From Patescibacteria group bacterium (GTDB lineage: Bacteria > Patescibacteriota > Minisyncoccia > UBA6257 > GWB1-50-10): a stretch of 64,000 bases of DNA. Positions 5,073 to 64,000 of the stretch are shown in pieces. The first letter of the stretch is position 1. The number at the start of each line of letters is the position of its first letter. The notes under the pieces are model-generated. The model did not search any database. It saw only the letters and a program-made list of their open reading frames with translations, and was not told the origin of the DNA. The position numbers and the translations under genes were made by a program. Location: NCBI GenBank assembly GCA_040757555.1, contig JBFLWN010000006.1, forward strand, positions 5,748-69,747, read 5' to 3'.

Positions 5073-7265
5073 ATCATAGTAGAAAAATCATCAAAAATCG
5101 AGTATAATATGGCGGAAAATATGTCTCATATCGAATTATCATCCCCCCTCTCTTTGATTCATGGTATTGGACCACGATTTGTCCAAAAACTAAATAAACT
5201 GCACATCGAAACGGTAAAAGATTTATTGTGGCACTTCCCAACGCGATATGAAGACTTTTCGAATATCACAAAAATTTCCGATCTTATTCCTCGCGAAGAG
5301 TGCACTATTCAGGCACTCGTGAAAAAAATAAATGTGCGTCGTGCATGGCACAAGCGCATGTTTATTATTGAAGCAAAACTCGAAGACGAAACAGGAGAAA
5401 TACGCGCAGTGTGGTTCAATCAAACCTACATCAAAAATATTCTTCAACCCGGGAAAACAGCAAATTTTTCCGGAAAAGTAAGTGAATCGCGTGAGGGAGA
5501 GTTATATTTTTCGAATCCCGGATATGAGGTAATAACGTTTCAAGAAAAAGAAACAAAACACACGGGGCGCATTGTGCCGATTTATCCGGAAACAAAAGGA
5601 CTCACCTCAAAAGGTATCCGTTATCTCATCCAACCGCTATTAAAAGTAATTGAAAAACCAAAAGAATCACTTCCACAAAAAATCGTAAAACAATATAATC
5701 TCCTCCCCCTTTCCGAGGCACTCCATATTATTCACTTCCCCGAAACACTCGACGATGCAATGGAAGCCCGCAGACGATTTAATTTTGAAGAATTATTTCT
5801 CCTTCAACTTCATCTCCTTGGTGAACGTGCAAGACTCACAAAAGAAAAAGCACCCGCGCTCGATATCGATGTTTCGATGATAAAAGCATTTTTGGAAACA
5901 CTTCCTTTTGAACTCACCGCATCACAAAAACAAACGCTTTGGGAAATCGTACAGGATTTAAATAAACCCACCCCAATGAATCGCCTCCTCCAGGGAGATG
6001 TGGGTTCGGGAAAAACAATCATCGCAGCGCTTGCGGCAATATGCACCGCACACAAAGGATATCAAACCGCACTTATGGCACCAACCGAAATACTCGCACG
6101 ACAGCACTATCAGACCATCATTAAATTCTTTCCTGATCATGAGGAGGGCGTTGCACTCCTTACCGGGAGTGAATCAAAGTTGTCATATGGACACGGGCTT
6201 GAAACCGATTTGAAAAAACCATCACTCATAAAAGAGATTGAAAGTGGAAAAATACATATAGTGATTGGCACCCATGCACTTATCGCAACCTCAAAGACAA
6301 AAAAAGAAAGAAAGATCACATTTCCCTCGCTTGGTCTTGTTATTGTTGATGAGCAACACCGATTTGGTGTGCGTCAGCGCGCTGAACTTACCAAGCGAAA
6401 AGAATATATCCCCCATTTCTTAAGTATGTCTGCAACTCCGATTCCACGAACACTTTCACTCACCCTTTTTAGCGACCTTGACCTCTCACTTATCACCGAG
6501 CTTCCGAAAAACAGGAAAGTAATTATTACGAGTGCGGTGCCGCCCGAAGAACGCACAAAATCATATGCGTTTATTCGAAGTGAAATAAAAAAAGGAAGGC
6601 AAGCATTTGTAGTGTGCCCAAGAATCCAACCCACAACCGACGAGGGTGGGCTTTCATTGAAAGAGCTCCAAATGCTTCAGGTAAAATCGGTAACGGAGGA
6701 ATATGAAAAGCTTTCAAAAAAAATATTTCCGGATTTACGCGTTGCCATGCTCCACGGAAAAATGTCGGGAGAAGAAAAAGCGAAAATAATGAATTCGTTT
6801 ATAAAAAATGAAACAAATATTCTTATTTCAACGTCCGTGATTGAGGTGGGTGTCGATGTGCCAAATGCCTCCATTATGATGATCGAGGGGTCGGAACGAT
6901 TTGGTCTTGCGCAACTCTATCAATTTAAAGGACGCGTCGGACGCGGAGAACATCAATCATATTGTTTTCTATTTACCGACTCGTCTTCTGAAGAAGTAAA
7001 AAAACGCCTCACCTCAATTGTCGAAGCAAAAAATGGACTTGAGCTCGCCGAAAAAGATTTGAAGTTCCGTGGCCCTGGAGAATTTTTGGGAGAAGGACAA
7101 ACAGGGATGCCCGACCTTGCAATGAAGGCACTGCAAAATCCACAACTCATGAAAGATGCGCGAAAGTCAGCGGAAGAGATTATAAAAAAAGATCCAGAAC
7201 TTTCTCTATATCCGGATTTAAAAAGTGCGGTAAAAATATTTACCTCACAAATACACAGAGAATAA
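5061..7265 (+). CDS. recG: ATP-dependent DNA helicase RecG (likely true start near 5109, MAENMSH...)
   Basis: Wedge/OB N-terminal region; Walker A GDVGSGKT; DEQHRFGV (DExH) motif; helicase C-terminal motifs (QFKGRVGRG). 734 aa. Confidence 0.9.
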   Translation: MNVHIIVEKSSKIEYNMAENMSHIELSSPLSLIHGIGPRFVQKLNKLHIETVKDLLWHFPTRYEDFSNITKISDLIPREECTIQALVKKINVRRAWHKRMFIIEAKLEDETGEIRAVWFNQTYIKNILQPGKTANFSGKVSESREGELYFSNPGYEVITFQEKETKHTGRIVPIYPETKGLTSKGIRYLIQPLLKVIEKPKESLPQKIVKQYNLLPLSEALHIIHFPETLDDAMEARRRFNFEELFLLQLHLLGERARLTKEKAPALDIDVSMIKAFLETLPFELTASQKQTLWEIVQDLNKPTPMNRLLQGDVGSGKTIIAALAAICTAHKGYQTALMAPTEILARQHYQTIIKFFPDHEEGVALLTGSESKLSYGHGLETDLKKPSLIKEIESGKIHIVIGTHALIATSKTKKERKITFPSLGLVIVDEQHRFGVRQRAELTKRKEYIPHFLSMSATPIPRTLSLTLFSDLDLSLITELPKNRKVIITSAVPPEERTKSYAFIRSEIKKGRQAFVVCPRIQPTTDEGGLSLKELQMLQVKSVTEEYEKLSKKIFPDLRVAMLHGKMSGEEKAKIMNSFIKNETNILISTSVIEVGVDVPNASIMMIEGSERFGLAQLYQFKGRVGRGEHQSYCFLFTDSSSEEVKKRLTSIVEAKNGLELAEKDLKFRGPGEFLGEGQTGMPDLAMKALQNPQLMKDARKSAEEIIKKDPELSLYPDLKSAVKIFTSQIHRE

Positions 7266-7314
7266 TAAACCCTTTATTTTTTAATAGAATACCGTACACT
7301 AATAACTGAATCAA

Positions 7315-7385
7315 CGGGCTGTCGTATACCGGTAGTACGCTTGCTTTGGGAGCAAGTAGACTGGGTTCAATTCCCAGCAGCCCGA
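7315..7385 (+). tRNA. tRNA-Pro (anticodon TGG)
   Basis: Acceptor CGGGCTG/CAGCCCG; D-arm GTAT-ACCGGTA-GTAC; anticodon stem CTTGC/GCAAG with loop TTTGGGA (anticodon TGG); T-arm CTGGG-TTCAATT-CCCAG; discriminator A. No CCA. Confidence 0.8.
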
Positions 7386-7392
7386 CAAAAAA

Positions 7393-8472
7393 ATGATCTT
7401 TATATTCAAAGATAATCCAGAGCGGATAAAGAATATAGAATTAAAAGAAAGTAAATTTAAACAGAAACTTCACTCGCATGTTCCTGATTTTTGTTTTGGT
7501 ACAAAATACCTAAAAAGAAAAAAAAGGGGGGAGGATCCGCTTGAATTTTTAAAAAGATATTCACGCCATTGGTTTTCCAATCTTGGGCGACATATCACGG
7601 CGCCGCTCGAAAAAGTAAAAATAGAGTGGAAAAGAAAATATATGATTTTCCCCTCGGTGATGAATGAGAAAGAGAGGGTGTTTTGTAAATACTCAATACA
7701 AAAAAGTGGCCCAGGAAAAAAAGTCGCACTTATTACGGTCATGCACTGGAACGGTATTCCGAAAGAATATGACGCACTCATTTCATTCGTGAGGAATCGA
7801 CTCTTGCCGTTAAGCACATTCTTGTTTATCCCCTCAAATCGCAAGGCCTCGTGGGGAATTAAAAAATCAATGGACTATGAAAGTGTGGGTCCAGATATTG
7901 GACATATGGTTTCGCGTTTCCAAAAAAATGTTTTCGACATACAACGTCTTGCGTGGATTTTAAAAAACGAACTTGGGTTTGATGAGGTGGGAATATTTTC
8001 TTTCAGTATGGGGACGTGTTATTCGTCTGTTGCGACAATGGGAAATCCATCGCTCTTTGATTTTGCGATTTTTCATCTTCTCGCGGATGATTTTCATAAA
8101 GCACTTATGAGCGGGGTTGGCACAACAAGAATAGCTGAAAAAATAAAGGGAAATGTGAAAGAAGAAGACCTCCATGAAATTTTAAAAATACTTTCCCCTG
8201 GAGCGTATGAGAAAAAACTAAAAAATCTCCCAAAACACACACGAATTGTCCAGGCAAAATATGATCACGTATTTTGTCCCGAAAACGTTACTACAATAAA
8301 CAAAAAAATACGGGCAGTTCGCCACGATATCGAAGTAGATATGGAACCATTGGGACACAACTGTCTTAATTCATTCCCATTGGGACTCAAGGTGCTCTAT
8401 AACGACATAAAATTCATTTATAAATACACTGGGATGAAAAAACATCCATTTCGCAAATTTTTCATCTCCTAA
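7393..8472 (+). CDS. alpha/beta-hydrolase-fold protein (putative esterase/lipase-like), function unknown
   Basis: Nucleophile-elbow-like FSFSMGT (small-x-Ser-x-small), followed in order by candidate acid (KYDHVF) and His (EPLGHNC) residues. The Ser-Asp-His order matches alpha/beta hydrolases. 359 aa. Confidence 0.4.
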   Translation: MIFIFKDNPERIKNIELKESKFKQKLHSHVPDFCFGTKYLKRKKRGEDPLEFLKRYSRHWFSNLGRHITAPLEKVKIEWKRKYMIFPSVMNEKERVFCKYSIQKSGPGKKVALITVMHWNGIPKEYDALISFVRNRLLPLSTFLFIPSNRKASWGIKKSMDYESVGPDIGHMVSRFQKNVFDIQRLAWILKNELGFDEVGIFSFSMGTCYSSVATMGNPSLFDFAIFHLLADDFHKALMSGVGTTRIAEKIKGNVKEEDLHEILKILSPGAYEKKLKNLPKHTRIVQAKYDHVFCPENVTTINKKIRAVRHDIEVDMEPLGHNCLNSFPLGLKVLYNDIKFIYKYTGMKKHPFRKFFIS

Positions 8473-8934
8473 TTATTTCTCAGGGGGTAGTCCGTTTGTC
8501 GCAAGTGAACGGTTGGAATATCGATCATCGTCCGTCACCTCAACCGCATTATTCGCCCATTCCGGCAACACGAATTGTTTTGCGTCTTCCTCATCTATAA
8601 ATTCACACTCAAGAATCATAAGTGGTGCAAGTGATCCTTTGTATATATCAAATTCAATTGAGTGATTATGATACGGAATTATATATCGATCCTTTTCTAA
8701 TTTTTTCTTCTCTATCCCCGACCATATCTTCTGAAATACCCACTCGGGAATTTCAACTTCCCATTCTTTTCTCACGAGCCCCCGACCTTCTTTTACTGTC
8801 ATAAAATATTTCTCCCCCTTTCTCCGTACACGAATTTTTTTTCCATACCCCTGTGCAATATGGAAAATTTCCTTTCCAAGAAGTATTTCTTCGGGAATTG
8901 GAGAAGTAATTTTAAATCTTCTTTCTATTTCCAT
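8473..8934 (-). CDS. CYTH-domain protein (CyaB/thiamine-triphosphatase-like triphosphate tunnel enzyme)
   Basis: N-terminus MEIERRFKI resembles the CYTH family N-terminal ExExK-type motif (MEIERKFLV in family members), and the 153-aa size fits. Assignment is by motif memory only. Confidence 0.45.
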   Translation of the reverse strand: MEIERRFKITSPIPEEILLGKEIFHIAQGYGKKIRVRRKGEKYFMTVKEGRGLVRKEWEVEIPEWVFQKIWSGIEKKKLEKDRYIIPYHNHSIEFDIYKGSLAPLMILECEFIDEEDAKQFVLPEWANNAVEVTDDDRYSNRSLATNGLPPEK

Positions 8935-28217: not shown

Positions 28218-28536
28218 GGGGGTGCACGTATCGACAGAGATTATATGTATACATAGCAGGTCGAGCTGAATATCTCGAAAACTGTTCAACAAATTATAAC
28301 TGCCAATTTTAACGCAGTCCCCGCGCTCGCTTACGCGTAGTACGGCATCGGCCCTTCAGGTCTCATAGAGGATCACCGGTGTTATAATGAGAACCGCTCA
28401 GAGTATGGATCTACTTCGCTCCATCCTGAGTTAAATAACGCAAAGTACCATTGTTCTGAACTTTTAGTTCAAAAACTAAGCTTGTAGAATATGTATAGAT
28501 AAATTTTTGGAAGAGGGTTCAATCTCTCCACCTCCA
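28218..28536 (+). ncRNA. ssrA: tmRNA (ssrA), ~319 nt, standard non-permuted form
   Basis: Immediately downstream of smpB. 5' end GGGGGTG...ATCGACAG (tmRNA 5' consensus-like). 3' tRNA-like end with T-arm GAGGG-TTCAAT-CTCTC and acceptor CACCTCC pairing to GGGGGTG with G3-U70 (alanine identity); discriminator A. Internal tag reading frame GCC AAT TTT AAC GCA GTC CCC GCG CTC GCT TAC GCG TAG (28302-28340). Terminator aaccccttagtggggttttt follows. Confidence 0.7.
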
Positions 28537-28549
28537 CAAATAAAACCCC

Positions 28550-53161: not shown

Positions 53162-55645
53162 ATGATAAAAAAGAAGAAGGTAAAAAAAGGGGGGTTCACT
53201 AAAACATTTTGGTCTGTGTTTATATTTGGATCATTTGGAATTCTTGTTGTTGGTTCTGTATATATTGCAATTCTCATCCAAACACTTCCCTCTCCAGAAC
53301 AGTTTAATGTTCAGAGATCCAATCAATCAACAAAAATATACGACAAAAACGGTGAGGTGGTCCTCTATGAAATACATGGGGAAGAAAAGAGAACGGTTGT
53401 GCCGTTTGAAGAAATACCCGATGTGGTAAAAAAAGCAACACTTGCTGCCGAAAATGCAGATTTTTATAATCAACCAGCATTTGATTGGCGAGCGATTCTC
53501 CGGGCCCTTTATGCAAATATAAAAAAAGGTACAACTGCACAAGGGGGATCTACCATCACCCAACAACTCGCAAAAAACGTTTTCCTTAGTCCAGAAAAAA
53601 CAATAACAAGAAAGGTAAAGGAACTTATTCTTGCTCTTGAACTCGAATCAAAATATTCCAAAGATCAAATTCTTTATTTTTATCTCAATCAAATACCCTA
53701 TGGATCAAACGCATATGGGGTTGAGGCCGCAAGTCAAAGTTATTTTGGAAAATCTGTACGAAATATTTCTTTGGAGGAAGCTGCTGTTCTTGCGGGAATG
53801 TTGAAGGCCCCGAGTTATTTTTCTCCGTGGGGATCTCACACAAAAGACCTTCTTGATAGAAAAAATTATGTGTTGGACCGCATGGGAGAATTAAATTTTG
53901 TGGAAAAAGAGATTGTAGAGAAGGCAAAAAAGAAAGAGGTTGTGTTTACTCCCCCATCCCTCGGATCAATTAAGGCGCCCCACTTTTCCCTTATGGTAAA
54001 AGATTATCTCATAAATAAATATGGGGAAGAATTGGTCAATAATGGTGGATTAAAAGTTATTTCCACACTTGATTGGAAGATGCAGGAAATAGCCGAAAAA
54101 GCTGTTCTGGAGGGCTCTAAAAACAACGAAAACGTCTATGGTGCCAATAACGCCGCCCTCGTCGCAGAAGACCCAAAAACAGGCCAAATTTTAGCTTTGG
54201 TGGGTTCTAGAGATTACTTTGATATTAAAAACGAAGGAAATTTCAATGTTGCGGCTCAAGGAATGAGACAACCAGGATCAGCGCTTAAACCATTTATATA
54301 TCTCACCGCCTTTCATAAGGGCTACTCCCCAAAAACCGTTCTTTTTGACGTAAGCACAGAATTTGATTTGAGAGATTCTCCGGAAACAAGTTACCGTCCT
54401 CAAAACTTTGATGGGATGGATCATGGACCCGTAACACTCGAAAATGCACTTGCACAATCATTAAACATTCCCGCGGTAAAATTATTATATCTTGCGGGAG
54501 TAAATGACTCATTAAAAACTCTTCATGACTTTGGTATCAGCACCCTTAAAGAAACGTGGCGATATGGACTCTCGTTGGTTTTGGGTGGTGGGGAGGTAAA
54601 ATTAATTGATCTTGTAAACACTTATGGAACTCTTTCTCAGGAGGGTGTACGTCACGAACAATCTATTGTTTTAAAAATAGAAGACACTGAAGGAAATATT
54701 TTGGAAGACTACACCGACAATACAAAAAGAGTTTTCGACGACACCCAATCAATGAGGCTTGTTACACAAATTCTCTCATCACCGGAACTTCGTGCACCAA
54801 TTTTTGGAAACTCTCTTCCTTTTACAATATATGATGGATACGACGTGGCATTAAAAACAGGAACGTCCGGCGACCATCGTGATGCGTGGGTGGTTGGATA
54901 TACCCCATTCCTTGTTGTTGGTGCGTGGGCAGGAAACAATGACAATACCCCAATGATACGACAAGGGAGTAGTATTCTCGCTGCCGTTCCTATTTGGAAT
55001 TTGTTTTTACGTGATGTTATAAAAAAATACGAGCCAGAAAAATTTATAGAACCAGAACCAATTCCCTATACATCAAAACCAATGATCAATGGGGAATACA
55101 TGTGGAAACCAATAATTCAGGGGAAAACATATCCACAAATACACTCAATTCTTTATTATGTTGATAAAGAAAATCCCTTAGGTCCAAAACCAAAAAACAC
55201 CTCAATCGATCCGCAGTTTAAAAATTGGGAAGTTGGAGTGTTGAATTGGGCACGAACAAATATTCCGGATTTCCAGTTGTGGAACCAATCGATTGCGGGA
55301 GATATTTCGTTTTCATCAGACCAAGAAAACACAACCCAAAGTAATCTTGGGGGGGAGGTAAATGAAAAAACAACAATCACTGTTATTTCCCCGAAGAACG
55401 GTGAATTTGTTGTCTCTCCATTCATTATCCAAGCAAATATCCGAGCAGGAAAAAACAAAGAATTAAGACGAGTTGAATTATCAATAAACGATCGACTCAT
55501 AAACGGTTTTGATATAGAAGGGGTTTCATATAGATATCAATATTATTTCAATACAATACTTGATCCTCAGAATCTTTTTGAAATAAAAACAACCGACTCC
55601 TCCGGGTCGATTGTTAAAAATTCATTTATCGTCTATAAAAAATAG
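53162..55645 (+). CDS. class A penicillin-binding protein (PBP1A-type; glycosyltransferase GT51 plus transpeptidase) with a ~200-aa C-terminal extension
   Basis: N-terminal TM anchor; GT51 motifs (EDxxFYxHxG-like ENADFYNQPAFD, GGSTITQQLAKNVFL); transpeptidase SxxK (SALKP), SxN, KTG (KTGTS). 827 aa. Confidence 0.85.
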   Translation: MIKKKKVKKGGFTKTFWSVFIFGSFGILVVGSVYIAILIQTLPSPEQFNVQRSNQSTKIYDKNGEVVLYEIHGEEKRTVVPFEEIPDVVKKATLAAENADFYNQPAFDWRAILRALYANIKKGTTAQGGSTITQQLAKNVFLSPEKTITRKVKELILALELESKYSKDQILYFYLNQIPYGSNAYGVEAASQSYFGKSVRNISLEEAAVLAGMLKAPSYFSPWGSHTKDLLDRKNYVLDRMGELNFVEKEIVEKAKKKEVVFTPPSLGSIKAPHFSLMVKDYLINKYGEELVNNGGLKVISTLDWKMQEIAEKAVLEGSKNNENVYGANNAALVAEDPKTGQILALVGSRDYFDIKNEGNFNVAAQGMRQPGSALKPFIYLTAFHKGYSPKTVLFDVSTEFDLRDSPETSYRPQNFDGMDHGPVTLENALAQSLNIPAVKLLYLAGVNDSLKTLHDFGISTLKETWRYGLSLVLGGGEVKLIDLVNTYGTLSQEGVRHEQSIVLKIEDTEGNILEDYTDNTKRVFDDTQSMRLVTQILSSPELRAPIFGNSLPFTIYDGYDVALKTGTSGDHRDAWVVGYTPFLVVGAWAGNNDNTPMIRQGSSILAAVPIWNLFLRDVIKKYEPEKFIEPEPIPYTSKPMINGEYMWKPIIQGKTYPQIHSILYYVDKENPLGPKPKNTSIDPQFKNWEVGVLNWARTNIPDFQLWNQSIAGDISFSSDQENTTQSNLGGEVNEKTTITVISPKNGEFVVSPFIIQANIRAGKNKELRRVELSINDRLINGFDIEGVSYRYQYYFNTILDPQNLFEIKTTDSSGSIVKNSFIVYKK

Positions 55646-59577: not shown

Positions 59578-60006
59578 ATGGACAACATACTTGAATCAAT
59601 AAAAATTATCGTGGAAAAAATGGGATTTCCCGGTGCGGAAATATCATTTGATCAGGAACACAGAAAAATGTCTTTAGTGATAGACGAAAAACTCATACAC
59701 GAAAACATCGGTATGTTTTTACCCGCACTCGACCATCTTTTTGGTCTCGTGTTTAGAAAACACGAACAAGCACCATTTGTGCTTGATGTGAACTATTATC
59801 GGAGGGAGAGAGAGCGGTTAATTGCCGAACTCGCACGAGCATCCGCAAAGAAAGCAATGGTAACAAAAACAGACATCGAGTTGCCTCCAATGAATGGATA
59901 TGAACGAAGGTTGGTACACATGGAAATCACCACCCACCCAGAATTAAGAACAGAAAGTGTTGGGGAAGGAAAAGAACGAAGGGTGGTAATAAAACACATT
60001 GAATAA
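59578..60006 (+). CDS. jag: Jag/KhpB RNA-binding protein (KH-like plus R3H domains)
   Basis: C-terminal R3H motif (ELPPMNGYERRLVHMEITTHPELRTESVGEG) and synteny after yidC. Terminator atcccgatatatatcgggat plus T-tract at 60011-60038, bidirectional. Confidence 0.75.
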   Translation: MDNILESIKIIVEKMGFPGAEISFDQEHRKMSLVIDEKLIHENIGMFLPALDHLFGLVFRKHEQAPFVLDVNYYRRERERLIAELARASAKKAMVTKTDIELPPMNGYERRLVHMEITTHPELRTESVGEGKERRVVIKHIE

Positions 60007-60038
60007 AAAATCCCGATATATATCGGGATTTTTTATTG

Positions 60039-61241
60039 TTAAATTTCTTTTGATATATCAATTCGATAGAGGGTGTTATCAAATCGGTTTTTGAAATATA
60101 TATAATTCTCAAAAAACATTACCCCCGTCGCATCGGTTTTATAGGTGATAGCGGCAGATGCGCTTAACACCCCAATTTCTTTTGTTGAAAGATTAAATTT
60201 CATAAGTGTGTCGGTGGTAAATATTTTTCTTTGTTGATATGAATCGAAAAAACCAATATAGTCATTTTGTTCTTGCGGAACAAAACAATAGGTAGTGCTC
60301 GCAAATAAATCACACTTATCGGGGATTGTGAAAAAATCCACATAGGTTGTTGTTTTTAGTGAGTTGGTGATAAAACCAAGTTGTTTTTTTGACGGGATAG
60401 AGAAAAATATATTCTTTTTGTCTTTTGAAAAACCGGGTGTCCCTCCCCGTTCCGTTTGGACAACAAGTGATAGACTTTGATCTTTCTGATTGAATTCCCA
60501 CACCCTTGAAGGATAAAAACTACTTGATCTTTCAGAAAATAATATTCTGTCAGTCGGCACAACCGAAAGGAAAACATCGTTTAAAACAAAATCTTTTAAC
60601 AGTGTTTTGTATGTTGGTTGAGCCTTTTCAATATTTATTTCCACCAAATCTTTTTTCCCCGAGTTTTTGACTATTCCAAAAAGTTTTTTTTCCGAACCCC
60701 CCCACACCACACTTACCAAATCAGAAGAGAGGGGTTTCCATGTTTTATCAACTACATTAAATATTCCGGTTTGAAGATTGTTTTTTTCCCCGAATGATGC
60801 AAGTATTTTTTCTCCTGTTTGATTCGGAAGAAGCGCATATATTGTTCCTACGGCTTGTGGCGATATTTTTTGATCATCTTCTGTTTTTGCGAGATAGACA
60901 TCTCCATCGGAATTGGTATAGAAAATCTCGTTTGTCTTTTTATTTACCCAAAAATATCCAATTTCTTGGTCTGATAATTTTTCAAGTATTGGAAGAGTGT
61001 CTCCTTGTATTTCAGATGGTGACCCCTCGGTGTTTTCACTGCCAGCGCCCTCGGGAACATCTCCGTTGTTTGTGTTTGTAACAATATTTTCACTACCACC
61101 CGGAAGAGTGTTTATTTTTGTGTTATCTATTGATACGTCTTCAATTGGTGTTCCAAAGACGACCTTCCAAGCAAAATACAATCCTGCAATACAAACAATT
61201 CCAATAAGGGTAAGAACAATTATTTTTTTTGTTTTACTCAT
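60039..61241 (-). CDS. hypothetical membrane-anchored extracytoplasmic protein (last gene of the minus-strand operon at window end)
   Basis: 400 aa, N-terminal TM anchor IIVLTLIGIVCIAGLYFAW, followed by a low-complexity linker (NTNNGDVPEGAGSENTEGSPSE) and a beta-rich domain. 3-nt gap to the upstream gene. Confidence 0.35.
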   Translation of the reverse strand: MSKTKKIIVLTLIGIVCIAGLYFAWKVVFGTPIEDVSIDNTKINTLPGGSENIVTNTNNGDVPEGAGSENTEGSPSEIQGDTLPILEKLSDQEIGYFWVNKKTNEIFYTNSDGDVYLAKTEDDQKISPQAVGTIYALLPNQTGEKILASFGEKNNLQTGIFNVVDKTWKPLSSDLVSVVWGGSEKKLFGIVKNSGKKDLVEINIEKAQPTYKTLLKDFVLNDVFLSVVPTDRILFSERSSSFYPSRVWEFNQKDQSLSLVVQTERGGTPGFSKDKKNIFFSIPSKKQLGFITNSLKTTTYVDFFTIPDKCDLFASTTYCFVPQEQNDYIGFFDSYQQRKIFTTDTLMKFNLSTKEIGVLSASAAITYKTDATGVMFFENYIYFKNRFDNTLYRIDISKEI

Positions 61242-61244
61242 AAA

Positions 61245-62486
61245 TTATTTAAAATTAACATGTATATGTTCTACTTGTTCGTAATAATTACCACAATCTT
61301 TTGCGTACGAGCGATTTTGATATGTGGTGCATATTTTTGATATATTCGAGTTGTTATTTTTCAAATAATTCAAAAGTTGTGTGTTTGTTGATAAATCAAC
61401 AACTGGTTTGTCAGCCCCATGTGTTGCGTGTCCATTCTCTGCCCCCCCCGTTATTGTAACGTCACACGCACACGATTTTTTTATATTTATCACCGCATCG
61501 ATTGTTGAAGCCGGAAGGAGTCCGACGTTTGTGCACTTAGGATTAAATGGATCTGCACAATTTCCAGAACTACTCACACGCACTCCATTCAAAGCAAGTT
61601 TTTCAACTGCTTTTTTTTCTGCGGCATCCATACCAGTGGTATATGAAGTTTTTGTGTACTTACAATTCCCATCAAATCGGTTAATGATACAACATGTTTG
61701 ATTATGGTCCTTGTCCCATCCCCACCCATCATCATTACACTCTGCTTCGCCCCCATTTTGCTCTATTGCGAGGCAACAACTTATCCCATCTATATTTGGG
61801 TCGCTGGATGCTGCTTTTCGGCACTCTTCTTTTGAATCTTTATAACAATATCCCCACTCTGTTTTTGTGACTGGCTTATCTTCTGTTGAATATTTACATT
61901 CGCCAATAATTTTGTCTTTCAAACAACAACTTTTTTTACTTGCGTTGTCATATCCCCATCCGTCGGTTTGACATCGCGCTTGCCCCCCATTTACATCAAC
62001 CGCGACACAACAACTATCTTTTTTTTGTTCATCCCACTCCCAGACCTTTTCTGTAAGGACTTGAGAATTGCTAATAAATTGTGGACCCTGTGGTTCTCGA
62101 ATTGCAATAAGTTGCGGGTTTATTGTATTTAAAATGACATATGCACCAAAAAGCAGACCAAGCCCCCAGAGCGCAGAAAAAATCATATCCTTCCCCTCAT
62201 TTTGTTTATCAGGACTTCCCCCGGAAACCGTATATAATATTCCTCCTGCCACCATCATTCCAACAGCCAATATTCCCGATATACCAATTGCGAATTGATA
62301 AAGTCTTCGGATGTAATTGGGAATACTTGCGGTTGTGTCAGCAGAAGCACAATCAGTGTATCCGAGAACTTGTGTGCCAAAACTGGTACAAGGGAATTTA
62401 TAATCTATTATTGCCGCGTGTACAGTGAAACTAAACAAAAAGAACAAAACAAGAAAAAAGACTATTTTTAAATTTGATTTTGCCAT
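61245..62486 (-). CDS. secreted/membrane protein: TrbC/VirB2-like two-helix pilin-type module fused to a Cys-rich internally repeated extracellular domain
   Basis: Signal peptide (IVFFLVLFFLFSFTVHA). Hydrophobic hairpin FAIGISGILAVGMMVAGGILYTVSGG-SPDKQNEGKD-MIFSALWGLGLLFGAYVILNTI with Gly-rich packing faces like VirB2/TrbC pilins. Then two tandem repeats SCCVAVDVNGGQARCQTDGWGYD / SCCLAIEQNGGEAECNDDGWGWD and further Cys pairs. 413 aa. Confidence 0.4.
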   Translation of the reverse strand: MAKSNLKIVFFLVLFFLFSFTVHAAIIDYKFPCTSFGTQVLGYTDCASADTTASIPNYIRRLYQFAIGISGILAVGMMVAGGILYTVSGGSPDKQNEGKDMIFSALWGLGLLFGAYVILNTINPQLIAIREPQGPQFISNSQVLTEKVWEWDEQKKDSCCVAVDVNGGQARCQTDGWGYDNASKKSCCLKDKIIGECKYSTEDKPVTKTEWGYCYKDSKEECRKAASSDPNIDGISCCLAIEQNGGEAECNDDGWGWDKDHNQTCCIINRFDGNCKYTKTSYTTGMDAAEKKAVEKLALNGVRVSSSGNCADPFNPKCTNVGLLPASTIDAVINIKKSCACDVTITGGAENGHATHGADKPVVDLSTNTQLLNYLKNNNSNISKICTTYQNRSYAKDCGNYYEQVEHIHVNFK

Positions 62487-62488
62487 AA

Positions 62489-63160
62489 TTATTGTATAAA
62501 AAGATTTATTTTTTCTTTCGCAGACTCGAGTCCATTTTTTACATTTTGAACAAACGCCTCAATCACCATATTTTTTTGATCCGGTGTTTTTGGGGAACCA
62601 ATATTTAGTGTAAGAAGGGTGTCGCGCGTCTCGTTTTGTTTTTCCCCATTAATTCGCCACAAAGAAGTGATTTCAGATGGAGAAGAGATATTGAAAAAAA
62701 ACGGAACAACCAAAAAAGTAACCCTTTCTCCCGAGGCAACAAGCCCTCTCGGATATTTATTTTCAATTGTTATTATTGGGTTAAAAACAGGAACAGAAAC
62801 AAGATTTTCATATTTATTTGTTTTTGTTTGGACAACAACACGCACAGAATGAGAACTCCTTCCGATTTTTGTTATAGGAAACGAGAACTCTTTTAATCCA
62901 ACACCCTTATTAGAAAACACACCATCGAGGAACCATGATATCTCAGCTTGAGAAATGTTTTGTATTTTTTTATTTATAAGAAGTTCCACAGAGACTGCGA
63001 TTATATTACCATTGGTTGGGAGTGGCTTTGCTTCAAAGTCTGCCGAAGTATAGTTGTCCGCGTGCCACGTGACGAGGAGGTTGTTTTCTGTTTGTCCAAA
63101 AACATTCGAGAAAACAAAAAAGAAGGAGAGGAATAAAACAAATAAAACTTTTACACTCAT
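62489..63160 (-). CDS. hypothetical secreted protein (signal peptide, beta-rich)
   Basis: Signal peptide MSVKVLFVLFLSFFFVFSNVFGQTE. 223 aa. 2-nt gap to the downstream gene, same operon. Confidence 0.35.
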   Translation of the reverse strand: MSVKVLFVLFLSFFFVFSNVFGQTENNLLVTWHADNYTSADFEAKPLPTNGNIIAVSVELLINKKIQNISQAEISWFLDGVFSNKGVGLKEFSFPITKIGRSSHSVRVVVQTKTNKYENLVSVPVFNPIITIENKYPRGLVASGERVTFLVVPFFFNISSPSEITSLWRINGEKQNETRDTLLTLNIGSPKTPDQKNMVIEAFVQNVKNGLESAKEKINLFIQ

Positions 63161-63182: not shown

Positions 63183-63614
63183 CTACTTTTTTATCGCTGA
63201 GCCAATTTTTCCACTCGCGACAGAGGCAATTTTTTGTGCTTTTGGGTTGTTTTCTATAAAAACAATAAGAAACCAAGCCGAAATTGCAAAAGGAAACATA
63301 CCTAGAATTGGAAATGAATTCATCATGTTTCCCCCAAGGCTTGATACCCACGTCCACACCCCACGAGCACCCTTCATAAAAATATAGAGTTGAAAAAACG
63401 CACCAACAGTAAGACTTATTGCACTTCCAATAAAAGAGGACACTTGCCCAAGAATGGGTATGGGGAACATAAGGTTTGCAAAAAAATCGATTAATTCTAC
63501 AAAAAAAAGAATGAGGGTTACTAGGATAAACTCTCCTGTTCCAAACATCTTTTTTCTTTCCCCGGTGTTTATCTCGGGTGTCTTTTTTTCTCCCCCTTTT
63601 ATTTCTTTTGGCAT
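63183..63614 (-). CDS. small polytopic membrane protein (3 TM), possible VirB3/VirB6-like accessory of the adjacent VirB4-like ATPase
   Basis: 143 aa with hydrophobic segments FILVTLILFFVELIDFFANLMFPIPIL, SSFIGSAISLTVGAFFQLYIF and FPILGMFPFAISAWFLIVFI. Starts 4 nt after the upstream ATPase-like gene. Confidence 0.35.
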   Translation of the reverse strand: MPKEIKGGEKKTPEINTGERKKMFGTGEFILVTLILFFVELIDFFANLMFPIPILGQVSSFIGSAISLTVGAFFQLYIFMKGARGVWTWVSSLGGNMMNSFPILGMFPFAISAWFLIVFIENNPKAQKIASVASGKIGSAIKK

Positions 63615-63617
63615 ATA

Positions 63618-64000
63618 TTACGACAACAATCCTTTTGTTTGTAGCACTTGTTCGGGGTTTGTAGTGATTATTTGGTCTTCAGTGTATGACGCAATGATTT
63701 TTATTGCTACATGTTTTAGTCCCGCAAAAAAGAGTCCTTCTCCTACCCCCGCCTCAAGAAGAAGTGATTGTTCGCCACTGGTTAAATCAAATGCTTGTGT
63801 TACCGCATCAATACTTGATGGAGACTGTTTTAAGAGTAGTTGTATTGAGGAATTAGTGACGATTGGTTTTCCATATTCTGATTTTAGGAAGTCCTCAACA
63901 TCTTGGGTTATGGTAGTAACCCCCAAATAATATTTCCTGGCGCGTTTTACCAACCCAAACAAAAATGACGCACTGTCTTTATATTTCATCATCCACCACG
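63618..64000 (-). CDS. C-terminal fragment of a VirB4/TrbE/TraC-like conjugative-type ATPase (gene continues beyond window end)
   Basis: C-terminal block ...YYLGVTTITQDVEDFL...PIVTNSSIQLLLKQSPSSIDAVTQAFDLTSGEQSLLLEAGVGEGLFF matches the VirB4 C-terminal pattern (ATQS...I.EN..TKIFLPN......LS..E..L) from memory. The ORF is open at the window edge, so 5' partial. Confidence 0.45.
   Translation of the reverse strand, partial: WWMMKYKDSASFLFGLVKRARKYYLGVTTITQDVEDFLKSEYGKPIVTNSSIQLLLKQSPSSIDAVTQAFDLTSGEQSLLLEAGVGEGLFFAGLKHVAIKIIASYTEDQIITTNPEQVLQTKGLLS

Follow-up and report, generated by a model that had tools for sequence, protein, structure and literature searches.

The pilin-like gene and its product

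The DNA analysed here, called the window below, is a stretch of 64,000 nucleotides from a Patescibacteria group bacterium (GenBank assembly GCA_040757555.1, contig JBFLWN010000006.1, positions 5,748 to 69,747 of the forward strand). The gene in question lies on its minus strand at 61245..62486, within a type IV secretion system (T4SS) operon, and encodes a protein of 413 amino acids (aa) that joins a VirB2-like membrane hairpin to a Cys-rich module and to a C-terminal domain of predicted LAS / Hedgehog-DD-peptidase fold. An identical sequence is already in GenBank (MEW6617465.1, "MAG: pilin [Patescibacteria group bacterium]", MAG standing for metagenome-assembled genome), where it is annotated simply as "pilin". 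The protein was aligned with 14 relatives (P0001-P0014), and its parts are as follows.

61245..62486, minus strand: whole open reading frame (ORF), ATG start, 413 aa plus stop
62415..62486, minus strand: residues 1-24, Sec-type signal peptide (by hydropathy, a hydrophobic core followed by VHA↓A; helix 4-22 in the model; predicted cleavage)
62334..62414, minus strand: residues 25-51, short extracytoplasmic N-terminal segment (alignment and hydropathy)
62112..62333, minus strand: residues 52-125, VirB2-like two-helix membrane hairpin (T4SS_pilin, PF18895; Pfam and AlphaFold helices)
62043..62111, minus strand: residues 126-148, post-hairpin linker with little conservation (alignment and regional identity)
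61887..62042, minus strand: residues 149-200, Cys-rich repeat A (WEWD...SCC...C...GWGYD...CC...C; alignment and repeat comparison)
61782..61886, minus strand: residues 201-235, inter-repeat segment with a WGYC...EC pair, which belongs to the single-copy module of P0003-P0008
61653..61781, minus strand: residues 236-278, Cys-rich repeat B (SCC...C...GWGWD...CC...C; comparison of repeats A and B)
61248..61646, minus strand: residues 281-413, domain of predicted LAS / Hedgehog-DD-peptidase fold, probable Zn peptidoglycan peptidase

The Kyte-Doolittle profile has three hydrophobic segments, at residues 1-24, about 62-86 and about 100-122, and the VHA↓A that ends the first is a typical signal peptidase I site. 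In the segment that follows the signal peptide, P32 is invariant in alignment A1, and C33 and C46 are kept in most of the A1 sequences. The protein contains 22 Cys, none of them in the hairpin and 14 in residues 151-300. A phmmer search of the whole protein against the PDB returned an adenylate cyclase alone, with E~0.07 over the Cys-rich region, which was taken as chance.

The membrane hairpin

The T4SS_pilin model PF18895, 71 positions long, is matched from position 2 to 71 by residues 52-122, with E=1e-9 and a score of 38.7 bits (gathering cut-off 26.6). Below threshold are the classical TrbC/VirB2 model PF04956 (12 bits, cut-off 27.9, E=0.25) and the NCBIfam Mbov_0395 pilin-like model (15.5 bits, cut-off 40). 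The full-length AlphaFold2 (AF2) model, which was built from 50 sequences, has confident helices at residues 55-87 and 92-122, with a predicted local distance difference test (pLDDT) of 86-94, and the 70-residue hairpin segment contains 11 Gly. A leader peptide and two hydrophobic helices with a short polar loop, which is the pilin-type layout, are thus present by hydropathy and in the AF2 model. The initial annotation had proposed a signal peptide and a hairpin of the T4SS pilin kind, as opposed to a signal peptide with a single transmembrane (TM) helix; both helices of the hairpin are found, and its T4SS-pilin character is borne out by the Pfam match and by the position of the gene in a T4SS operon.

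The size of the protein is not that of a small single-domain pilin, which has a mature length of about 70-140 aa, the 413 residues including a tail of about 290 aa. Stand-alone hairpin homologues of 85-139 aa are abundant in the Candidate Phyla Radiation (CPR) among the matches listed; a census of the lengths of hairpin proteins is uninformative, the matches listed being all <=139 aa with the known long relatives absent. Foldseek against the PDB yields only a match to the archaeal conjugation pilin 8dfu, which is not significant (E=4). The signal peptide and the hairpin topology predict that both ends of the mature protein lie outside the cytoplasmic membrane, given that the leader is cleaved, and an external C-terminal tail would fit the cysteine content of the tail.

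Conservation along the protein is highest in the hairpin, which is 92-100% identical in P0001 and P0003-P0008. When the window protein is compared with P0003-P0008 alone, the identity is 92-98% for the hairpin, 60-64% for the LAS domain, 46-53% for the Cys-rich module and 26-55% for the signal peptide. The strongest constraint in a protein would not be expected to fall on a passive anchor; the hairpin is likely to engage in specific contacts, with other copies of itself, as in pilins, or with the T4SS membrane complex.

The C-terminal domain of probable LAS type

Conservation extends to all 14 aligned relatives in the last ~130 residues. The invariant positions are C310, C318, C341, T346-G-G, E350, G352-H353, H356-G357, P361, D364, C386, C398, E403, H407 and H409; five of them are cysteines (C310, C318, C341, C386 and C398), and C339 is kept by most relatives. 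The AF2 model of the domain has a pLDDT of 93.5 and a predicted template modelling score (pTM) of 0.88. In the fold comparison it scores 7.4 with MepA (111/133 residues aligned), 6.9 with the Sonic hedgehog (Shh) N-domain (ShhN), 6.1 with VanX, 5.8 with the VldE C-domain, 5.7 with both the Streptomyces albus Zn DD-peptidase and LysB4, and 5.1-5.3 with LdcB, VanXY, Ply500, VanY and the T5 endolysin. The predicted model has the arrangement of a LAS / Hedgehog-DD-peptidase fold.

The sequence points in the same direction. Hedgehog N-domains make up 22 of the 24 weak matches (E~0.1) of the family profile to the PDB, and the alignment places TGG-TE-GH...H......D onto a segment of Shh and Y.E...H.. 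onto Shh YYESKAHIH. The clade profile compared with human ShhN by hhalign gives the same register (pairwise E=0.0055), in which H353, H356, D364, E403, H407 and H409 correspond to Shh H135, H141, D148, E177, H181 and H183. From published Shh work we take H141, D148 and H183 to be the zinc ligands, and H135 and E177 to be the catalytic pair. E403-x3-H407-x-H409 matches Shh E177-x3-H181-x-H183, so the metal and catalytic motifs stand in order and are invariant in the clade. Taking the predicted model and this register together, the domain very probably has the LAS / Hedgehog-DD-peptidase fold, and as judged from the alignment no member of the His/Asp/His metal triad or of the Glu/His catalytic pair is missing. 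The domain may then bind Zn and cleave peptide stems or cross-links of peptidoglycan, and the invariance of all metal and catalytic residues argues for catalysis.

A profile of the domain finds 384 proteins, many of which are CPR proteins with a PF18895 hairpin. Other matches are stand-alone proteins of ~150-180 aa in Streptomyces, Kribbella and Micromonospora, and stand-alone homologues occur also in fungi (Botryobasidium, Zasmidium and Hapsidospora), in the bdelloid rotifer Adineta and in the springtail Folsomia; these stand-alone LAS-like proteins include P0055, P0059, P0066, P0098, P0139 and P0149. Two homologues have PG_binding_1 and PG_binding_3 domains N-terminal to the LAS-like domain. 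The patchy taxonomic spread of the family, which is covered by no Pfam or NCBIfam model, suggests horizontal transfer of an antibacterial enzyme.

The Cys-rich module

The two Cys-rich repeats, at residues 158-200 and 236-278, share 20 of 43 positions (47%, BLASTP of A against B, E=2e-15), and each copy contains a weaker sub-repeat (W-x-W-D-x5-CC-x8-G-x-C). Repeat searches on the DNA find matches of 15-16 nt at most, the 15-nt repeat reflecting the K-K/D-S-C-C sub-repeat; as the trace on the DNA is down to 15 nt, the duplication is old. The window protein, P0001 and P0002 have the module twice and P0003-P0008 have it once; it is absent from P0009, P0010, P0013 and P0014, while P0011 and P0012 have other inserts. 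Repeat A is the extra copy and is limited to the window protein, P0001, P0002 and locus L005.

The module has no Pfam match even at E<=10 and no confident fold, residues 132-281 having a pLDDT <50 in the full-length AF2 model. A HMMER profile search of 1.84 billion representatives finds it only in its own clade, plus P0153, which was rejected as spurious, being a 1257-aa repeat protein that is not Cys-rich and shares only a C..I.GW.WDKN string. An identity with hevein/CBM18 was also rejected: hhalign aligned 9 columns (WGWC) with a probability of 15%, the 8-Cys core was not matched and there was no Pfam match. The module is an orphan specific to this small clade, with no family and no fold. 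It might serve as a disulfide-braced spacer or as a target-binding stalk, which would fit its even number of Cys, its external location and its variable copy number.

The initial annotation had called the repeats near-identical and had seen in the rest of the tail additional Cys pairs. The tandem pair is real, and the degree of likeness was overstated, 14 of the 23 quoted residues being identical, and 47% over 43 positions. The Cys-rich repeat and the quoted strings NCADPFNPKCTNV and KSCACDVTITGG are present, but the strings lie outside the repeat, in the last 133 residues, which form the separate conserved domain of predicted LAS fold (281-413) and not mere extra Cys pairs. The DGWGWD motif had been regarded as a hint of carbohydrate binding, which finds no support in the Pfam search, in the short WGWC alignment with hevein or in the poorly modelled region. 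An enzyme family has been found in the tail, yet it is one that acts at the cell surface and not one foreign to surface structures, which the initial annotation had named as an objection to its view, so that objection does not hold in full.

Operon and genome context

The genes and features around the pilin-like gene are the following.

63618..63992, minus strand: C-terminal part of a VirB4-like T4SS ATPase (NCBIfam conju_CD1110, E=1.4e-17; Pfam P-loop_TraG), which runs past the window end
63183..63614, minus strand: 143-aa polytopic membrane protein, no Pfam/NCBIfam family, present at this place in the operon in 15 of 30 loci fetched
62489..63160, minus strand: 223-aa secreted protein, no Pfam/NCBIfam family, directly upstream of the pilin-like gene
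60039..61241, minus strand: 400-aa N-terminally anchored protein, no Pfam/NCBIfam family, last operon gene
60002..60037, no strand: bidirectional terminator-like hairpin with a perfect 16-bp palindromic stem, separating the end of the operon from the convergent jag/R3H gene and shared by both

The pilin-like gene is the penultimate gene of the T4SS operon, a conserved chromosomal operon near dnaA, and lies two genes downstream of the VirB4-like ATPase, and is separated by 2 nt from the 223-aa gene and by 3 nt from the 400-aa gene. The 223-aa gene lies directly upstream of the pilin-like gene in every locus that covers that position, and the 400-aa gene lies downstream of it in all loci except L013, where it is upstream. 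The proteins of 143, 223 and 400 aa are likely uncharacterised T4SS components. Beyond the terminator lie jag, yidC, rnpA, dnaA, dnaN and the PBP1A gene, the last at 53162-55645 of the window.

The full VirB4-like gene is visible in locus L001, from the contig of a relative that covers the whole cluster; the cluster starts with TrbL_3 (VirB6-like), a 421-aa protein, a 124-aa protein (bAvd/23S-IVP-like) and PrgI (VirB3-like), and continues with a TraC-like protein of 216 aa, VirB4 of 582 aa, the 143- and 223-aa proteins, the pilin-like protein and a 398-aa protein. The function of VirB4 is apparently split in every covering locus between a ~216-aa TraC-like N-terminal protein and the ~582-aa ATPase that follows it; in L001 the two genes are at 6250-6900 and 7016-8764 on the plus strand. 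The 124-aa protein, which has 23S_rRNA_IVP / bAvd-like Pfam matches, is encoded within the T4SS cluster, after the VirB6-like gene and before the VirB3-like one, in L001 (5123-5497, plus strand), and occurs also in L002-L004 and L009.

The same operon position in related genomes

A scan of loci, with one genome per species, returned 27 loci besides L001, from Jorgensenbacteria, Brennerbacteria, one MAG labelled Microgenomatus and other Patescibacteria. The gene order is the same in L001 and the 27 loci: TrbL/VirB6, PrgI/VirB3-like, TraC-like, VirB4, in some cases the 143-aa protein, the 223-aa protein, the pilin-like protein and the 398-aa protein, followed by DnaA, which lies a few kilobases downstream of the pilin-like gene wherever the contig extends far enough. 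A single hairpin ORF is found per locus, and it invariably occupies this slot. Its product has a tail of 134-442 aa wherever the full ORF is covered, L030 being truncated by the end of the locus.

Nearly all of these tails end in one of two LAS types, which are the type of the window protein and a second type with the motif ...(V/I)TEA(F/Y)PP..H...HYNG.A.D...H.H. The exceptions are L019, which is without a LAS motif, L005 and L015, which have masked bases, and L030. The second subfamily, found in L008-L011, L013, L014, L016, L023-L025 and L028, matches Sonic, Indian and Desert hedgehog in the PDB with E=5e-8 to 1e-6. An hhalign comparison with the window subfamily aligned only the terminal HxH, which does not suffice to unite the two in one sequence family. 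The masked bases interrupt the pilin-like ORF in L005 (2763-4547) and L015 (7833-8774), and the read-through of L005 into the downstream gene is a data artefact and no real fusion.

As far as the sequences of these loci tell, this T4SS component has a conserved design, a hairpin followed by a putative LAS peptidase, and the Cys-rich module is a local addition to it. The fusion had been regarded in the initial annotation as unusual, which is correct in comparison with classical VirB2 but not in related Paceibacteria-type genomes, where it is the rule at this operon position.

Many hairpin proteins have another conserved and unannotated module after the hairpin, of the form '...YP(F/Y)Y ... A(R/Q)C(L/I/V)(I/V)YA(Y/F)...'. 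It is carried by P0011, P0012, P0015, P0018, P0020, P0022, P0023, P0025, P0026 and P0028 and found in loci L007, L011, L013, L016, L020 and L027; it precedes the LAS domain in some proteins and is the sole tail domain in others.

Comparison with known systems

The T4SSs of Patescibacteria are MPF-FATA-like and often lie beside dnaA, and VirB2-like genes are found in 1,948 assemblies (Quinonero-Coronel et al., PMC12102498). In that survey of 3,035 genomes, most of those with VirB2-like genes lack the VirB1 hydrolase, and C-terminal domains on VirB2-like proteins are not mentioned (PMC12102498). In Southlakia epibionticum both the T4SS and an array of six pilin genes are essential (Wang et al., PMC10633639).

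Patescibacterial VirB2-like pilins, such as SEML1_0014-0019, belong to the same hairpin family as the window protein, have a signal peptide and two TM helices, and are likewise encoded in a monoderm-type T4SS cluster near virB4, often near dnaA. They have ~85-185 aa, often form arrays of 2-11 divergent copies and are without an enzyme domain, whereas the window protein occurs as one copy per operon, with 413 aa and a predicted extracytoplasmic tail of ~290 aa. The gene of SEML1_0007 adjoins virB4 in the essential T4SS cluster of S. epibionticum and encodes a protein with a Hedgehog/DD-peptidase domain (PMC10633639 Table S2). Like the window protein, SEML1_0007 places a domain of this fold (951-1105, ECOD e6n7gC1) inside a Patescibacterial T4SS cluster; unlike it, SEML1_0007 has >1100 aa and no reported pilin hairpin, the two being set side by side by description only.

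VirB1-type hydrolases of monoderm systems (PrgK of pCF10, TraG of pIP501, TcpG and CD419/TrsG) are membrane-anchored and encoded in T4SS operons, and they open the wall locally for the T4SS machine (PMC12102498). They have lytic transglycosylase/lysozyme-like and CHAP/NlpC-P60 domains, not LAS domains, and a plain TM helix as anchor. The window protein has no Pfam/NCBIfam match to lytic transglycosylase/lysozyme-like or CHAP/NlpC-P60 domains, and is an analogue of VirB1 and not a member of its family because its predicted catalytic domain has the LAS fold and not a VirB1-type one.

LAS-fold enzymes (E. coli MepA of family M74, VanX and VanY of M15, the S. albus Zn DD-peptidase, phage L-Ala-D-Glu peptidases and ShhN) have the same order and register of His...Asp and (Glu)...His-x-His as the window domain. 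The window domain differs from them in having no match to a curated model, a His-Asp spacing of x7, a shorter GH-to-H loop, and five invariant Cys in addition to C339.

Proposed function and alternatives

With a probability of about 0.55, the protein is a T4SS-dedicated Zn peptidase that is tethered by a pilin hairpin and cuts peptidoglycan, so that a VirB2-like chassis would serve a VirB1-like task. The domain assignments are computational, and catalysis, substrate, localisation and polymerisation are inferred. The LAS domain would open the wall where the T4SS works, as VirB1-type hydrolases do elsewhere, and its substrate could be the wall of the bacterium itself, that of the attached host cell, or both, the own wall being a possible substrate because the bacterium encodes PBP1A. 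The strongly conserved hairpin would dock the enzyme to the T4SS membrane complex or let the VirB4 machinery extract it, and the Cys-rich module would be a rigid spacer or a target-binding stalk whose length varies between lineages.

Several points weigh against this reading. The Hedgehog link has an hhalign probability of 6.6% and a profile match of just E~0.1, Foldseek finds no significant match in the PDB for either the full-length or the domain model, and neither the domain nor its 109 relatives match any LAS model of Pfam or NCBIfam. The spacing H356-x7-D364 departs from the canonical x3-6, while the wider family has H-x6-D. As to the target wall, some Paceibacteria attach to archaea without murein (PMC9763046).

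It is unlikely, though several observations speak for it, that the protein is a true polymerising pilin which VirB4 extracts, so that a filament or short stalk with a LAS peptidase on every subunit would drill the wall of the partner. No other hairpin-family ORF occurs in the operon or elsewhere in the 64-kb window, each related locus likewise has just one, and any VirB2-like subunit here would be this protein; the constraint on the hairpin is far above that on the rest of the protein, as is expected of a self-packing subunit. In the solved structures of F- and T-pili both termini of the pilin face outward, by which a C-terminal domain would be displayed on the filament. The abundance of short stand-alone hairpin homologues in CPR and the essential pilin array in Saccharibacteria (PMC10633639) point the same way. 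However, an appendage of ~290 residues on each subunit would be sterically demanding for VirB2-type helical packing, the match with 8dfu is not significant (E=4), and polymerisation is an assumption. The fuller form of this idea, in which the VirB2-like subunit is itself the wall-cutting tool and VirB2 and VirB1 functions are merged in one polypeptide of a conjugative-type pilus, is slightly less probable again; a short filament, polymerised or extruded by VirB4, would carry the zinc peptidase on a disulfide-braced stalk on each of its subunits and bore through the partner wall.

An anti-host effector or toxin, the LAS domain of which would lyse or weaken the host wall for nutrients while the hairpin serves in delivery or retention only, with no role in the assembly of its own T4SS, is improbable. 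The small secreted homologues in Streptomyces, fungi, a rotifer and a springtail have a spread typical of antibacterial wall hydrolases, and T4SSs that kill bacteria are known to deliver peptidoglycan hydrolases (PMC6536674). Against this, a Sec signal peptide and a membrane hairpin are unlike T4SS effectors, which are recruited from the cytoplasm, no immunity-like partner is evident, and the fixed position in the core operon of 27 genomes resembles that of a structural or assembly component more than that of a variable cargo.

More doubtful still is the function given in the initial annotation, that of a pilin with a non-enzymatic, disulfide-rich tip, perhaps with a catalytically silent LAS-like domain, which would bind a carbohydrate or surface ligand of the host. 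The repeats are rich in Trp, Gly and Cys and are placed outside the cell, and the module is lineage-specific with a variable copy number, as parts for host recognition often are. In Hedgehog itself, the LAS fold serves chiefly in binding. However, the module has no similarity to any binding family in the Pfam and hevein comparisons, and P0009 and P0010, which are without it, keep the hairpin and the LAS domain, so the module is dispensable for the conserved function. The LAS metal and catalytic residues are complete and invariant across the family, which argues for catalysis and points to a cell-wall peptidase in place of an adhesive tip. Finally, a housekeeping wall-remodelling peptidase with a two-helix anchor, near the T4SS genes by chance, is very improbable, for although LAS enzymes like MepA and LdcB serve in routine wall maintenance, the anchor here is specifically a member of the T4SS_pilin family and the same two T4SS-linked genes flank the pilin-like gene in all covering loci except L013, with gaps of 2-3 nt.

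The components of the protein are of known kinds, namely T4SS_pilin, LAS peptidases and T4SS-associated wall hydrolases. No description of a fusion of pilin hairpin and peptidase in CPR was found in the searchable full-text literature, and the fusion, its conservation across a CPR clade and the two unannotated sequence families appear to be undescribed. These families, now defined, are the LAS-like domain and the orphan six-Cys WGWD module, and the wall-hydrolase domains concerned escape current Pfam and NCBIfam models. The role of the Patescibacterial T4SS has been called unknown, or completely unknown, in reviews (PMC11665869, PMC12857230); the one species tested needs the system for epibiotic growth, and the system is without relaxase and coupling protein (PMC11665869, PMC10633639). 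If the protein is the tethered peptidase proposed above, this suggests a partial answer to the missing VirB1 in Paceibacteria-type lineages, in which the VirB2-like product would carry the wall hydrolase itself, and offers a testable lead on how ultra-small bacteria of the CPR/Patescibacteria breach an envelope.

Other features of the window

Rfam models identify a tmRNA at 28218-28539 (plus strand) and six tRNAs, at 2539, 3566, 7315, 9677, 18555 and 37914, which are ordinary and unrelated to the T4SS operon.

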